Virus record (IMG/VR): IMGVR_UViG_2617270951_000013
DNA from: a virus
Lineage: Duplodnaviria; Heunggongvirae; Uroviricota; Caudoviricetes
DNA length: 5,747 nucleotides
Strand: one strand, 5' to 3'
The notes beneath the pieces were generated by a model. The model was not told where the DNA came from. It worked only from the letters and a program-made list of their open reading frames with translations, and did not search any database. Position numbers and translations under genes: made by a program. Of the stretch, positions 714 to 5,747 are shown piece by piece (positions within the stretch are counted from its first letter, which is position 1; each line of letters opens with the position of its first letter).

Positions 714-1451
714 TCATTCACTCTCTTTCAAACCAGTTTTAACTGTTTGTGGTTTTGGGTAAGGCTGGACTTTGAATAGCTTTGTGTTAAGGCGTTTTCT
801 GGCTCTCTTGTCCAGAAACCGGATGTAACGAAACTGACGGAATTTATGAACACTGGCTCTGTCGATATTAGCCCGCAGATGTTCACCTCGCTGTCCTCCT
901 CGTTTGATTGCATTCTTGCAAATCTCGTGATACCACTCGCCATCAAGTTCATAGAATGTTGTTTCATGACTGCCTACATAATCAAAATTGCTTGCCTGGT
1001 ACACGACACCAAGACAGCCACAACGCTCATCTGCAAACGACTGAACCCACTGCACCTGCGGATAAAGTTGTCTGATTAGTTTGAGCGCGTAACTGATTGC
1101 CCTTGATTCGGAGTTTCTCGGCATACAGTCATGCAGCCATAACCGGTTAAGCTCCATATATTCGCGGTTCTGCGTGCCAGTTACGACGCGTGCACCATTG
1201 TTTGGATTAAGGGCATAACCCCATTGCATTACGCCAACCAGCTCCCGTTCTGAAAATATGCCCAGATGAAGGTAGGAATTATTTACGAAACGATGGCTGT
1301 AATGTTTATTGACGACGACCAGCCGGGCCAGCCAGCAACTTATTGTCTCAACCCGTAACTCACGGGAGCCATAACCGACGATATTGTCGTTATAGTGAAT
1401 AAGTTCAGGCGTGCTGATGATACGGGATGTAACTTGCTTTCTGTTCCCCAC
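714..1451 (-). CDS. mom: Mom-like DNA modification enzyme (phage Mu Mom family, adenine-modifying anti-restriction function); start codon uncertain
   Basis: Long minus-strand ORF ending at TGA (716..714) whose 5' end overlaps the 3' end of a Com-like zinc-finger gene in another frame, as in Mu com-mom. The only in-frame ATG upstream (1613) would overlap all of com, so the proposed start is GTG 1451..1449, preceded by AAGGA (1466..1462). The track ORF 714..1646 is an over-extension. Confidence 0.6.
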
Positions 1452-1605
1452 GACAGGATTTCCTTGTGTATGTGGGGTGCTCTGTGGCGCTCTGAGATGT
1501 GATTTGATTGAGGGTTTTACAGCGCGGACATTTAACTTCCAGATAACTGAAGCTGGCTCGTGCCAGTAGCTTGTTACAATGTCGGCACCGTATGTTTCGA
1601 TACAT
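1405..1605 (-). CDS. com: Com-like zinc-finger translational activator of mom (66 aa)
   Basis: ATG 1605..1603 preceded by GGAGG (1620..1616). Product [14 protein letters not shown]...VKCPRCK has a CxxC-15 residues-CxxC zinc-finger at residues 7/10/26/29 and an EHPT motif, both recalled from Mu Com. Its stop (1407..1405) lies inside the mom frame. Confidence 0.75.
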
Positions 1606-1648
1606 GGCCGCATAACCTCCTGCTTTGTTGTTGATATCTTTATCACTC

Positions 1649-1673
1649 AATCGATCGACAAAAACGATCGATT
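1649..1673. promoter_or_regulatory. Perfect 9-bp inverted repeat AATCGATCG / CGATCGATT (7-bp spacer), each arm containing a GATC Dam site; candidate methylation-sensitive operator or promoter element for com-mom
   Basis: Arms at 1649-1657 and 1665-1673; GATC at 1653-1656 and 1666-1669, with a third GATC at 1735-1738. The repeat sits about 45-70 bp upstream of the com ATG on the transcribed side. Confidence 0.4.
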
Positions 1674-1861
1674 TGATTTATTTAATTGATACAACAAATA
1701 ACACGAAATGTCATTAGCGAAAATTTATGAGTTTGATCACTAATTTTAAACGGTGCTGTAACGCATAAGTGCTGAATGATTGTACATTTGAATACCGCAA
1801 AGCAAACAAATCAACTAATTTATAGAAGTCAATTGGTTAATTGCCAGCGTAAGAGGCTGCT

Positions 1862-2155
1862 ATGGACAATCATGTAACGACGAGAAATCGAAAAATGATT
1901 GAAAATGCGGAAATCTATAATGATTATTTTTCCGATTATTCAGATGCCTGCAAATACAGTTCGAGTGCGGGAGAGTTCATATGCTTCAACTTTTTTATTA
2001 AATCTTATGTTTTTCCTCCACAGCAAGAAGATGGAGGTGTGCCACCTCCTGAAATCACTTTGCACCGTATAGCCTCCGTCTCAATGATGGAGCAACAGGC
2101 TAATGAGCTGTATAGCATTCTGGGAACGATTCTACAAAAGCGTGAATCGGACTAA
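1862..2155 (+). CDS. Hypothetical 97-aa protein (orphan ORF in AT-rich island), divergent from com-mom
   Basis: ATG 1862 preceded by AAGAGG (1851-1856) with a 5-nt spacer; a 291-nt open frame in markedly AT-rich DNA where stops are frequent; TAA stop at 2153-2155. No recognisable motif. Confidence 0.4.
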   Translation: MDNHVTTRNRKMIENAEIYNDYFSDYSDACKYSSSAGEFICFNFFIKSYVFPPQQEDGGVPPPEITLHRIASVSMMEQQANELYSILGTILQKRESD

Positions 2156-2322
2156 TGATACCGGTTCATTTGCCTGCCCGGATGGGGAAGCAGGATTGAC
2201 TGCTCCATAAGCAGCTATATTTCTGAATACGAAATACTATCCAGCGATTACATATGGCTGGATAGCGGCAAAGATGTTTTCATTAGTGTCAAACCGGCAG
2301 AGGACACCACCGGTTTGTATTG

Positions 2323-2577
2323 TTACATCATGGTACTGTCAGTTCCGGGCTGAGCCGGGTCTGGTTGCTCTGGCTGCGCGTCGGTTTTCGGCTCATTATC
2401 AGCATCACTGGCCGCAACTGCTGGCCCAATAAGTTTTGCCAGCACTTCATCAACGTAAGTGTCGATTTGTGCCTCAAAATCCTTGCGGACCTGCGCTTTC
2501 AGCAACTTATTTACTTCACCGGAATACAGTGCCTGTTTTACCAGGTCTTCAGTGACGGTGCCTTTAATTTCTGGCAT
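2323..2577 (-). CDS. Hypothetical small acidic protein (84 aa) with predicted N-terminal amphipathic helix and Pro/Asp/Glu-rich tail
   Basis: ATG 2577..2575 preceded by a strong SD AAGGAGGA (2590..2583); net acidic composition (about 16 D/E vs 8 K/R); TAA stop 2325..2323. Confidence 0.6.
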   Translation of the reverse strand: MPEIKGTVTEDLVKQALYSGEVNKLLKAQVRKDFEAQIDTYVDEVLAKLIGPAVAASDADNEPKTDAQPEQPDPAQPGTDSTMM

Positions 2578-2612
2578 GTATATCCTCCTTATGCGGGAAT
2601 AAAGCCCTGCAA

Positions 2613-2795
2613 TCAGGGCTGGGTCGGGTCTTTTGGGAGCGGAGTTACCTGCGCTGTTTTACTGAGTTTTTCAGCTGCTGCGTCCTCAATTTTGCGGCGA
2701 ACATAATTTCTGATGGCCTTATAACCACCACTCACCAGATATAACGCACATACTGCCGTGCAGAAATACAATAAAATAAGCTGTAAAAATGTCAT
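2613..2795 (-). CDS. Hypothetical small membrane peptide (60 aa): one N-terminal hydrophobic helix plus a basic/charged tail
   Basis: ATG 2795..2793 just downstream of GGGAGGG (2805..2799); product MTFLQLILLYFCTAVCALYLVSGG... then KAIRNYVRRKIED...; TGA stop 2615..2613. The track ORF starts at a TTG (2807) that lies inside the SD, so the ATG is preferred. Confidence 0.5.
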   Translation of the reverse strand: MTFLQLILLYFCTAVCALYLVSGGYKAIRNYVRRKIEDAAAEKLSKTAQVTPLPKDPTQP

Positions 2796-2810
2796 TATCC
2801 CTCCCAATTA

Positions 2811-2827
2811 TTGACATGGTGTTGACA
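2811..2827 (+). promoter_or_regulatory. Two tandem consensus -35 hexamers (TTGACA at 2811-2816 and 2822-2827); candidate plus-strand promoter with only weak -10 candidates
   Basis: Exact TTGACA twice, 11 bp apart. Downstream -10 candidates are imperfect: TAATAT at 2832-2837 (15-bp spacer from the first hexamer) and TAAAAA at 2846-2851 (18-bp spacer from the second). Confidence 0.25.
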
Positions 2828-2890
2828 CCGGTAATATCTGTTAGGTAAAAAGGTGCACTGCATTTTTTGCTTTGGATATAACGATCTTTT

Positions 2891-2932
2891 TGCCGCCGGT
2901 TTCTTGTTTTCCCTTACCGGCGGCATTTTTTT
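2891..2932 (+). terminator. Strong plus-strand rho-independent terminator
   Basis: Perfect 10-bp GC-rich stem TGCCGCCGGT (2891-2900) / ACCGGCGGCA (2916-2925), 15-nt loop, then T7 (2926-2932). On the minus strand the stem is followed by A-runs, so it is oriented for plus-strand transcripts only. Confidence 0.6.
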
Positions 2933-2939
2933 ATCCTGC

Positions 2940-4994
2940 TTACGCGTTATTCACTTCCACCACGATACTGTCAATCAGTACCGGGTAAGTCGCATTTTTA
3001 GTGATATCGGTCACGCGCAACTTGTCTGCCGTAAACGTGCCGACCGGAGACTGCGACAGCATGAATGGTGTCCCGTCCTTACCATCAATGACCGGCGTCA
3101 CCTCAATACTGTTGTTACCGGCAAAACGGAAGCCCAGCGTATGCCATTCGTTATTAAATGCGCCGAATGACCCCAGCTTCGTGTTCTGCGCCGTGTTTCC
3201 TTTGTGATACATCACGTTAAGGTCTGTGGCATCGCTCTGTACGTAAAACGATGCCAGCAGGTTATGACCGGCATTACCTTCCAGTGTGACGCCCTGAGGA
3301 AGCGAAGAAACCGGCCAGTACAGCGCCAGTGCGTACTGATTAGCCGTAAGCGCGCCATCAAGTTTAAAACGACAGCTGACAAGGCCACCTTTTTCCAGCA
3401 GGTCGGCACCATTACCGGCATCATGCTCAAGGTACCAGGGGGCTCTTCCTGTTTCCTTAGTCATTTTCATTGCCTTACCCCCGCTGGCTCCGGCATCATC
3501 CACGATTTGAGCCTTGCCACCTCCGGCAGCCCAACCCTGTGGTGTCAACCGTCCTTCAGACTCAGATGCCCGGTAAGCAAATAGCGTACTCATCGTCGTG
3601 GTGTCTGCGGGTGGCGTGGACGGTTTTGATGGTGTATCAGGTGACGGCTTCTCATCCGGTGGTGTCACGGTCTGCCCGCGCATCAGTTCAGCCGTGCGCC
3701 CTGCATGGAGCATAATAGCTGAGGCCAGACGGTCTGAAATGACGCCCCTGCGTGCCCATGAGCTGAAATGGCTGTCACGCTGTGTCGAAACAAAACTGCC
3801 CTGGGTTCGGGATGCTGCACCGTAATACCCGACAGCCACAATATCCGGGTCTTCCGCCGGAGCATTCGTTGGCGTGCTCTGTCCATTCTCATCCGTCAGG
3901 AACGGTACAAAGAAAATTTTCTGTGCTTCCTTGCCTTTGTAGCCACCGTATACTGCCTCATATTTATCGGTGCCAGCGTTTTTCCAGTAATACGTGGTAT
4001 CACCGCAAATCCACGGCACCGTGGTGGCATTTCCACTCACGCACTGCGCAGCAAGCGGAGCCAGGTCAGTTCTGAACTGCTGAACCATGGCCGTGAATAA
4101 ACTATTATGCTGCTGGCTTCCTGAGGCAAGGTCTGCCTCTCCCTGCATCCAGACCACAGCCAGAAGTTTGTTTTTCGGGTTTTTCGCCAGCGCGACTTTG
4201 GTGCGGCTTACCAGGTCCTGATACAGAGGTTTACCGGCCCCCCAGCGTGAAGAATCAGCGGAAGCACCGCTGGCCTCACTGAATGAGCCGTCGGCTCCAG
4301 TGGTGAATGCTGACCCGCCACGACAACAGGGCACCAGAAGTATCCCGGCATTCTGTGGGATATAGGGAAGCAGTTTTTTGGCAATATGCAACCCCTGACC
4401 GACAGTCCCGTACTGGCCTTTTGCCAGATCAGCTTTCGGGTGGTTTATCCCGCTCATATCCTGAACATCATGCAGGCAGTGGTCTGCCGGAATGATGTCG
4501 TTGTATGTACACGACGTACCGTTGGGCGTTACCGTACTGCGGCGTGCCAGTTGCTTAATGCGTGGGTCCGGGCGGTCAAACGAATCCGGTAACGGCAGCC
4601 CCTCGCCGTAGGCCATGCCATTTGACTGACCCGCGAGAATGACAACAAAGTAATATTCCGGCTCTGAACTGCTGCCATTCGTGCTACCGGAAGGCCCGGC
4701 GTTATCCGGTGCATTCCAGTCGGAGGGCGTGAGCGTTCCGGCCACGTCAGATGTGATTGGAATGATGCCAGTCACGCCTGAACTGGTGATTTCTGCACTG
4801 GGATTACCGGATACCGGCATTACCCATAATGGCTCTTTCGTGCTGAAGCGGATCACGCAGTCTGCGAAGGTGATCCCCCCTTTATTACCCGAAGGGCGGA
4901 AAGGGCTTTCAATAAATGCCACCGTGCCACCGGCAACCTTGACTGAAAACTCTCCGGGCATGGCGGAGAGCATTTTCCACTTGGAGTCTGACAT
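2940..4994 (-). CDS. 684-aa multidomain esterase: N-terminal ~110-aa domain, SASA/SGNH-type carbohydrate esterase domain (sialate O-acetylesterase-like, comparable to prophage NanS-p), Pro/Ser/Thr-rich linker, C-terminal ~200-aa beta-rich putative lectin domain
   Basis: ATG 4994..4992, TAA 2942..2940. GQSN motif (residues 122-125, nt 4631..4620) and a downstream QGEAD block, which I recall as SASA-family hallmarks; linker TVTPPDEKPSPDTPSKPSTPPADTTT; C-terminal region rich in beta-type residues with no catalytic motifs. Confidence 0.8.
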   Translation of the reverse strand: MSDSKWKMLSAMPGEFSVKVAGGTVAFIESPFRPSGNKGGITFADCVIRFSTKEPLWVMPVSGNPSAEITSSGVTGIIPITSDVAGTLTPSDWNAPDNAGPSGSTNGSSSEPEYYFVVILAGQSNGMAYGEGLPLPDSFDRPDPRIKQLARRSTVTPNGTSCTYNDIIPADHCLHDVQDMSGINHPKADLAKGQYGTVGQGLHIAKKLLPYIPQNAGILLVPCCRGGSAFTTGADGSFSEASGASADSSRWGAGKPLYQDLVSRTKVALAKNPKNKLLAVVWMQGEADLASGSQQHNSLFTAMVQQFRTDLAPLAAQCVSGNATTVPWICGDTTYYWKNAGTDKYEAVYGGYKGKEAQKIFFVPFLTDENGQSTPTNAPAEDPDIVAVGYYGAASRTQGSFVSTQRDSHFSSWARRGVISDRLASAIMLHAGRTAELMRGQTVTPPDEKPSPDTPSKPSTPPADTTTMSTLFAYRASESEGRLTPQGWAAGGGKAQIVDDAGASGGKAMKMTKETGRAPWYLEHDAGNGADLLEKGGLVSCRFKLDGALTANQYALALYWPVSSLPQGVTLEGNAGHNLLASFYVQSDATDLNVMYHKGNTAQNTKLGSFGAFNNEWHTLGFRFAGNNSIEVTPVIDGKDGTPFMLSQSPVGTFTADKLRVTDITKNATYPVLIDSIVVEVNNA

Positions 4995-5069
4995 CGTCTT
5001 TTCTGCCTGTTTCTGAATTAAACAGAGTCAGAATAGCGACCGCTGAAAAATATGTGTTTTGCGGAAATT

Positions 5070-5099
5070 CAAAAAAGCGTCACGGTACTTTTGGTGACG
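5070..5099 (-). terminator. Candidate minus-strand intrinsic terminator overlapping the invertase stop codon
   Basis: 6-bp stem CGTCAC (5078-5083) / GTGACG (5094-5099), 10-nt loop; on the minus-strand RNA it is followed by CUUUUUUG (5077..5070). The stem is short, so confidence is modest. Confidence 0.35.
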
Positions 5100-5652
5100 G
5101 AGCTGGTGAGGCAGGAAAATAACGATAAAGGGGGGAAAGGCCAATATCAAATATCAGTGCGATTTGTTTACGGGACTCGCCATTAGCCAGCAAACGGGCG
5201 ATTTGCTCCCGCTCTTTCTCTGTCAGTTTCTGAGGTCTGCCGCCATGACGCCCCTGAGCACGGGCAGCAGCAAGACCCGCGCGTGTACGTTCAATAATGA
5301 GTTCCCGCTCCATTTCCGCCAGCGCGCCCATTATATGGAAAAAGAAACGTCCCATGGGAGTGGATGTATCAATATTGTCCGTAATGCTGCGGAAGTTAAC
5401 GCCGCGTTGCCGGAGTTCTTCTGTTAAAAGGACAAGGTGCTGCATACTGCGTCCAAGGCGATCCAGTTTCCAGACCAGCAGGGTATCCCCTGGCCGGAGT
5501 CGCTTTAATGCGCGTTTAAGTCCGGGACGCTCCCTTGTCTTACCGCTTATTCTGTCTTCGAAAAACAGCTCACATCCTGCACATTCCAGCGCATTTCTTT
5601 GTAGCGCCGTATTCTGGTCATTTGTTGACACCCTGATATACCCAATCAGCAT
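5080..5652 (-). CDS. Serine-recombinase DNA invertase of the Gin/Pin/Cin/Hin family (190 aa)
   Basis: Product begins MLIGYIRVSTNDQ (catalytic Ser motif) and carries GYIRVS, LDRLGRS and a C-terminal HTH-like region; ATG 5652..5650 preceded by AAGGA with a 6-nt spacer; TGA stop 5082..5080. Confidence 0.92.
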   Translation of the reverse strand: MLIGYIRVSTNDQNTALQRNALECAGCELFFEDRISGKTRERPGLKRALKRLRPGDTLLVWKLDRLGRSMQHLVLLTEELRQRGVNFRSITDNIDTSTPMGRFFFHIMGALAEMERELIIERTRAGLAAARAQGRHGGRPQKLTEKEREQIARLLANGESRKQIALIFDIGLSPLYRYFPASPAPSPKVP

Positions 5653-5717
5653 ACGATTTCCTTATTATAAAAAGCCGGAATTGTCGCATGAGGAATAAAA
5701 CAGAGTTAATCCTGGCT

Positions 5718-5743
5718 TTCCTGAAAACCTCGGTTTACGGGAA
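5718..5743. other. 26-bp gix/hix-type crossover site (TTCCTGAAAACC-TC-GGTTTACGGGAA) upstream of the invertase gene
   Basis: Two inverted 12-bp half-sites ending in AAACC / GGTTT around a 2-bp core, matching the Gin/Hin/Cin/Pin crossover-site pattern as I recall it; it lies about 66 bp upstream of the invertase start. Confidence 0.7.
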
Positions 5744-5747
5744 ACGG

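Follow-up and report, generated by a model that had tools for sequence, protein, structure and literature searches.

Variable accessory slots of temperate phages have been described under the 'moron' concept of Hendrix and colleagues, and in lambdoid prophages exclusion genes of the rexAB or sieB type are co-transcribed with the repressor. In phage Mu, the gap between gin and com is only 94 bp long and has no gene inside. The GATC sites of Mu are the target of Dam/OxyR control of mom, and the mom control region also holds a divergent overlapping promoter, momP2 (PMC3378877). The subject of the present analysis is a window of 5,747 nucleotides (the whole stretch of DNA that was analysed; IMG/VR record IMGVR_UViG_2617270951_000013) which comparison with related elements identifies as the right end of a Mu-type transposable prophage of E. 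coli/Shigella resembling Sp18. In contrast to Mu, the window has a cassette and cargo resembling that of Shiga toxin (Stx) phages in the gin-com gap. We focus here on the AT-rich stretch at 1650-2160, located between com-mom and the cargo genes, and on its single plus-strand open reading frame (ORF) of 97 amino acids (aa), hereafter ORF97. On comparison with related prophages, this stretch is a composite of a conserved com-mom control region and an exchangeable accessory cassette. The explanation that we favour, with moderate confidence, is that a control region (1606-1714) is joined to a swappable cassette (1715-2290) in which ORF97 is a real gene that does not regulate com-mom. The features concerned are the following.

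1606-1714, minus strand: conserved com-mom control region upstream of com, outside the exchangeable insert; G+C content (GC) 33.9%
1649-1673, unstranded: perfect palindrome AATCGATCG-N7-CGATCGATT with two GATC (Dam) sites, at 1653 and 1666
1715-2290, plus strand: replaceable accessory-gene cassette of 576 bp, consisting of an upstream region, ORF97 and a structured 3' region
1851-1856, plus strand: Shine-Dalgarno sequence AAGAGG, read from the sequence (GAGAGG in the CI5 allele)
1862-2155, plus strand: ORF97, 97 aa, acidic; RefSeq gives an 86-aa form from ATG 1895 (WP_000571916.1)
2200-2265, plus strand: hairpins 3' of the ORF97 stop, one at 2200-2214 with a T-rich tail and one with a 12-bp stem at 2237-2265; candidate transcript 3' end
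2291-2318, unstranded: hairpin AAACCGG-N12-CCGGTTT with GTATTGTT after it, within DNA common to FORC_069 and the window and just beyond the DUF826 stop

The composite nature of the stretch is revealed by related prophages. FORC_069 matches the window only at 586-1714 (95%) and 2291-5747 (98.9%), with 710 unrelated bp between the two blocks, and in this pairwise comparison the breakpoints are sharp at 1714/1715 and 2290/2291. Because both FORC_069 and the Sakai O157:H7 copy (annotated as 'prophage Sp18, Mu-like phage') carry unrelated DNA between the shared blocks, 1715-2290 is a discrete replaceable cassette. The slot of Sp18 is occupied by the 154-aa ECs_4996 (L023 5316-5780), which is likewise divergent from com. 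This unrelated protein (phrog_26524, with a Cys-rich C-terminal part) fills the slot more often than any other; in FORC_069 (L002 4321-5025) it is truncated, with extra small ORFs behind it. Of 5426 complete genomes of E. coli, 233 have the com side of the junction, 18 have the ORF97 cassette and 216 have part of the FORC_069-type cassette; in about 200 E. coli genomes, com-mom of about 95% identity is accompanied by a different gene in the slot.

GC of 1650-2160 is 36.6% against a window mean of 49.1%, which places it in the lowest 2% of all 511-nt sliding windows, the minimum (35.8%) being reached in the one starting at 1502. By segment, GC is 34.4% in the com-ORF97 intergenic region (1606-1861), 39.8% in ORF97 and 45-55% in the flanking genes; it is 39.6% in the cassette as a whole and 48.9% in the prophage part of the window. 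A sequence-only reading of this DNA had described 1650-2160 as far more AT-rich than its flanks. The measurement bears this out, although the wording was somewhat generous, as attR (591-713) has a GC of 37% and other intergenic regions 39-41%. The same reading had proposed a separately acquired insert. The exchangeable character of the DNA holds in the comparisons with FORC_069 and Sp18, but the boundaries do not: the insert corresponds to 1715-2290, and 1650-1714 belongs to the conserved control region. It had also stated that 1650-1861 contains no ORF, which is correct for ORFs of at least 60 aa, whereas mechanically called ORFs of 30-36 aa overlap the region. The mechanical com ORF reaches back to a TTG at 1650. 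The com start in RefSeq, however, is the ATG at 1605, which is preceded by GGAGG and aligns with the com start of Mu, and the true com-ORF97 intergenic region is therefore 1606-1861.

The part of this intergenic region next to com, 1606-1714, is 100% identical in strain M3 and 86% identical in CI5, lies within the 586-1714 block common to FORC_069, and aligns with the gin-com interval of Mu, where the late promoter Pmom is annotated. The palindrome at 1649-1673 is invariant in the window, CI5 and FORC_069, and it was also picked up as a 9-bp hairpin in our terminator scan. GATC sites are scarce in the window (8 against 22 expected), and three of the eight, at 1653, 1666 and 1735 (the last one 69 bp further on), fall within 1653-1738. 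As in Mu Pmom, the pair of sites is located directly upstream of com, shows the GATC-N9-GATC spacing of two of Mu's three sites and has the flanks AATCGATCG / GATCGATT. The GATC pair stands about 26 nt closer to the com start than it does in Mu; with com starting at 1605, the GATC palindrome is only 45-65 nt upstream of com. The C-activator site of Mu (GATTATGCCCCAATAACC) and its T6 run are also not conserved in the control region of the window. On the strength of this alignment and spacing, 1606-1714 is related to the Dam/OxyR-controlled Pmom region of Mu.

ORF97 itself was described correctly by the sequence-only reading: it is a plus-strand ORF of 97 aa at 1862-2155, starts with ATG, is preceded by AAGAGG and the 5-nt spacer CTGCT, and is divergent from com. 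Enrichment of the protein in Tyr (6.2%), Phe (6.2%) and Ser (10.3%), also remarked on at that time, is real but moderate; the isoelectric point is 4.7 and the net charge -6. In the divergent allele of CI5 (locus L039), the frame is open and the protein is 79% identical to ORF97. Frame survival alone is weak evidence, since 20% of random-mutation simulations also keep the frame open. However, nucleotide identity to CI5 is 85-86.6% in the ORF against 60% in the 135 bp 3' of the stop, and the substitutions are biased towards synonymous sites (proportion of synonymous differences, pS, 0.243; of non-synonymous differences, pN, 0.093; Fisher p=0.003). Together with the homologues in other genera described below, the open CI5 frame, the synonymous bias and the downstream divergence identify ORF97, by comparative criteria, as a genuine protein-coding gene. 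The Shine-Dalgarno sequence and ATG 1862 are kept in CI5, where Thr (ACA) replaces the internal Met12 that RefSeq uses as its start (1895). An allele lacking that Met supports the start at 1862, and the RefSeq start is probably wrong, the protein being 97 aa from 1862 rather than 86 aa from 1895. At least 1000 contigs, many of them from Shigella sonnei, encode precisely this 97-aa protein. A literature search gave nothing on WP_000571916.

Homology searches and structure prediction, which the sequence-only reading had suggested as checks, led to a remote family and a model of the fold. ORF97 has no match in Pfam, PHROGs, NCBIfam or PADLOC, and a sequence profile search of the PDB gave only chance-level PAS matches. 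A tblastn search of 2.3 Gb of phage DNA retrieved, at E=0.01, a 98-aa hypothetical protein of Escherichia phage vB_EcoS-733R5, which BLASTP aligns collinearly with ORF97 at E=5e-11 (29% identity over 80 residues of 97/98). By searching from this 98-aa phage protein and then with a joint profile, we assembled a family of ORF97/P0015-like proteins (family A), which comprises 24 representative clusters of 78-108 aa, three of them truncated ORF97 variants, among 1.8 billion proteins. Those of its members that are named derive from Escherichia/Shigella, Klebsiella, Raoultella, Lelliottia, Enterobacter, Citrobacter and Brenneria. URC09907.1 of vB_EcoS-733R5 and proteins of Klebsiella/Enterobacter prophages have the same length as ORF97 and are collinear with it, although identity is only 23-31%. 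In the reverse direction, the A proteins of the cassettes described below recover ORF97 in the window by tblastn at E=2e-8 to 2e-4. A search of a collection with one genome per species yielded no member of the ORF97 subfamily, and one of IMG/VR did not recover P0041, which is the relative closest to ORF97.

Core columns common to ORF97 and family A are I13, E14, D21, F23, Y32, F45, P52, G58, R69, S72, V73, A80, L83, L87 and L91. An alignment of 14 sequences has 15 invariant columns, and ORF97 shows the core columns as well as a length within the range of 85-107 aa; across an alignment of 32 sequences F45 never varies, and G58, S72, A80 and L87 hardly vary. All of the family-invariant residues are kept in both divergent ORF97 alleles. 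Four of 32 family A members match DUF3467 (PF11950) weakly, with E=0.0015 at best, and one protein closely related to P0015 carries the DUF3467 label in UniRef. ORF97, though similar in size, gives no match to DUF3467 even at E up to 10, and DUF3467 is itself uncharacterised, with one incidental mention in the literature searched. An AlphaFold2 model of ORF97 built on the family alignment (mean predicted local distance difference test score 79.7) shows a three-stranded beta sheet and a C-terminal helix, in the order beta-beta-beta-alpha. A Foldseek search of this model against the PDB returned nothing at E<=0.001, and a structure search of BFVD returned one unnamed viral protein of 93 aa (E=1.6e-4), which is uninformative. 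The conserved polar positions read from the alignment (D21, D25, N43, E56, R69 and S72) include no catalytic-type His or Cys, which suggests that ORF97 is a non-enzymatic, probably oligomeric binding protein.

The genomic context of the relatives is uniform. The contigs of ten family A members were read; all ten members are located in DNA of phages or prophages, and each is the first gene of a tight cassette. Two cassette types are present. In the A-B-C type, A is followed by B (80-145 aa) and by C (123-161 aa, with an invariant WHYH motif); in the A-T type, which includes P0041, A is followed by a coiled-coil protein of 156-175 aa with a C-terminal hydrophobic (membrane) anchor. These cassettes are located at prophage ends by retron, umuDC or invertase genes, in the nin region, in the gap between tail tube and tape-measure genes, and in a myovirus baseplate module. 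No mom gene lies within 4-8 kb in the relatives' loci examined. In four independent phage lineages, the cassette stands directly downstream of a cI-type repressor gene on the same strand, at the following positions.

L028 1687-2605: cI-adjacent cassette
L045 5001-5951: cI-adjacent cassette
L042 1167-1948: cI-adjacent cassette
L018 7001-7751: cI-adjacent cassette

This position behind cI-like repressor genes in four lineages resembles that of genes of the rexAB or sieB type. Unlike those genes, the family A cassettes show no similarity to any PADLOC defence model, and ORF97 itself is not beside a repressor gene. B, C and the membrane partners have no convincing match to a known family or defence model; in PADLOC-DB 2.0, ORF97, four other A proteins and the B proteins have no match, and the C and membrane partners have chance-level ones only. 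A search with the C-family profile found no solved relatives. From their position, it is possible that the cI-adjacent cassettes are undescribed exclusion systems expressed in the lysogen. ORF97 differs from its relatives in residing in a Mu-type genome and in having no downstream partners, whereas the relatives belong to lambdoid/sipho-type or myo-type genomes. Within the window it is not the first gene of a cassette: it is solitary. The convergent DUF826 gene is reached only 167 bp after its stop, and when all B, C and membrane-partner proteins were used as tblastn queries, no partner-gene remnants were detected in the window.

In several respects the ORF97 cassette behaves as a moron: it is present, absent or replaced among otherwise collinear prophages, deviates in composition, is oriented opposite to its neighbours, ends in terminator-like hairpins and is dispensable. 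The region 2150-2330, which contains these hairpins, has a fold z-score of -3.97 against shuffles, and the hairpin at 2291-2318 is a possible terminator, by its sequence, between the convergent ORF97 and DUF826 genes. No Rfam family matches inside 1500-2400. In contrast to a typical moron, no convincing promoter of its own was found for the cassette, and transcription may instead be supplied divergently by the mom control region. The only plus-strand promoter-like site near ORF97 overlaps the start codon, and upstream candidates picked by eye are all poor. Our proposal for how the gene works is that ORF97 would be expressed in the lysogen, its transcription starting at a promoter, so far unrecognised, within the conserved 1715-1800 segment or running divergently out of the mom control region in the manner of momP2 of Mu, with the transcript ending at the hairpins between 2200 and 2318. 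We further propose that the protein is non-enzymatic and oligomeric, and that it would bind a partner protein or neutralise it; binding of a partner is also the presumed role of the first subunit shared by the cassettes. As a solitary copy, it could neutralise related cassettes of other prophages, act independently, or be a relic under relaxed selection.

Several observations weigh against our favoured explanation of a control region joined to a swappable cassette with a functional gene. The ratio of non-synonymous to synonymous rates (dN/dS) of ORF97 is 0.36, which is 3-4 times higher than the 0.09-0.14 of mom, DUF826, DUF1378 and esterase genes, and between M3 and the window the ORF differs at five positions only, about three of which are amino acid changes. 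A scan for consensus promoters gave no excess over shuffles (3 found, 3.0 expected), and no library match or significant fold match backs any specific activity. In CP116919.1, IS1 is inserted inside ORF97 (L047 4001-4881), while mom, com, DUF826 and DUF1378 are still called full length. A related element with a disrupted ORF and flanking genes called full length, which the sequence-only reading had named as a sign against itself, does exist, although the intact form is by far the commonest. A second read-through variant exists (variants P0011 and P0014): its terminal peptide is identical but follows another codon, pointing to a further IS1 insertion, and this tail matches the IS1 end. Frameshifted forms of ORF97 also exist. 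An apparent frameshift in ORF97 of the second JE86-ST05 copy was rejected, as the frameshift sits in com. Judged from the disrupted alleles, ORF97 is dispensable. Lastly, the absence of partner genes from the window leaves room for a relic: ORF97 may be a decaying gene with no function at present, once the head of an A-B-C or A-T cassette that has since lost its effectors. We consider this unlikely but give it some weight. The solitary state of ORF97 beside downstream partners in all ten relatives examined, the raised dN/dS, the IS1 insertions and frameshift variants and the unconserved DNA 3' of the stop all fit decay. However, pN is significantly below pS, the family-invariant residues are kept in both divergent alleles along with the Shine-Dalgarno sequence and start codon, no trace of partner genes is left in the window, and the intact form, on at least 1000 contigs, is much the commonest.

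Other explanations are less probable still. The sequence-only reading had suggested that the protein is a regulator or accessory factor of the adjacent modification module, for which adjacency and the divergent orientation from com are the only arguments. Mu has no gene at this place, about 200 genomes combine the same com-mom with other slot genes, the IS1-disrupted allele stands alongside mom and com called full length, and the homologues' loci that were examined are devoid of mom within 4-8 kb; this suggestion is therefore not supported and very improbable. Equally improbable is that the ORF is a chance frame in a non-coding, AT-rich stretch that is regulatory or is foreign DNA under silencing. 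The low GC of the stretch and the fact that the frame stays open in one-fifth of simulations at the observed substitution density would agree with this, but homologues with conserved core columns occur in other genera, there is an excess of synonymous changes, conservation of the coding stretch does not extend into the downstream DNA, and 1500-2400 is free of Rfam matches. It is conceivable, though doubtful, that ORF97 forms a PC4/Whirly/Pur-alpha-like dimer binding single-stranded or melted DNA, for example the mom control region or its own promoter. We attach similarly little weight to the idea of an orphan 'antidote', in which ORF97 would copy the conserved first subunit of a so far undescribed class of prophage cassettes, often placed like rexAB behind cI, and would allow the phage to disarm these putative exclusion or abortive-infection systems in cells that it infects or co-inhabits. 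If so, the phage would carry only the neutralising subunit, next to the anti-restriction gene mom.

Under the favoured explanation, the AT-rich 'island' would consist of a known type of mom control region and an ordinary exchangeable accessory gene of a prophage, and would not be a new element of the mom system. Its interest would lie in the link that ORF97 provides to a small, entirely uncharacterised family heading mobile cassettes of 2-3 genes in enterobacterial temperate phages. These cassettes, located outside the window, are absent from the 2023 defence-system library and may merit testing as exclusion systems expressed in the lysogen. Should they be exclusion systems, the solitary copy in a Mu-like prophage would be a natural probe of the role of the shared subunit.

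The remaining features of the window are those of the host gene and of the right end of the prophage.

1-590: 3' part of a host phosphotransferase system gene, truncated at about 590
586-713: right end of the Mu-like element, with the relatives becoming similar from 583-586 onward
714-1451, minus strand: mom (Pfam Mom, E=1.6e-77)
1405-1605, minus strand: com (Zn_ribbon_Com)
2323-2577, minus strand: DUF826 gene (domain match)
2613-2807, minus strand: DUF1378 gene (domain match)
2940-4994, minus strand: NanS-p-like SASA/DUF6645 esterase of 684 aa (domain match)
5080-5652, minus strand: Gin-type invertase (domain match), gene intact in the window

Three exact copies of TTTGATAC are present in the right end, at 603, 625 and 660, where 0.2 would be expected by chance, and these repeats are plausibly end-binding sites of the transposase. 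The prophage of E. coli DLI.5a is 99.6% identical to the window from 583 onward and interrupts another host gene. Insertion sites differ in every relative examined (ypdB, a fimbrial usher gene, a molybdopterin-binding (xanthine dehydrogenase) gene beside xdhB, flgL and sorM), and a different host gene in each relative fits the expectation for transposition. The DLI.5a element is a remnant of about 10 kb with an internal deletion, and its invertase gene (L001 9681-10252) is frameshifted; CI5 and M3 have no annotated invertase gene between the esterase and tail-fibre assembly genes. Parts of the gin-com cargo (2323-4994, minus strand) match about 300 phage records, mostly of Stx-converting phages, which suggests that the block of esterase, DUF1378 and DUF826 genes is lambdoid late-region DNA captured by a Mu-type phage.

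Within this cargo, a candidate small RNA is located at 2821-2935 on the plus strand, between the DUF1378 and esterase genes and on the opposite strand to both. The Rfam family Esr41 aligns with it over the full length but scores 22 bits against a gathering score of 102, and the candidate therefore cannot be called Esr41. The interval contains a perfect TTGACA (2821-2826), followed after an 18-nt spacer by TAAAAA and, about 75 nt further on, by a 10-bp GC-rich hairpin with a U7 tail; the z-score of its fold is -4.25.

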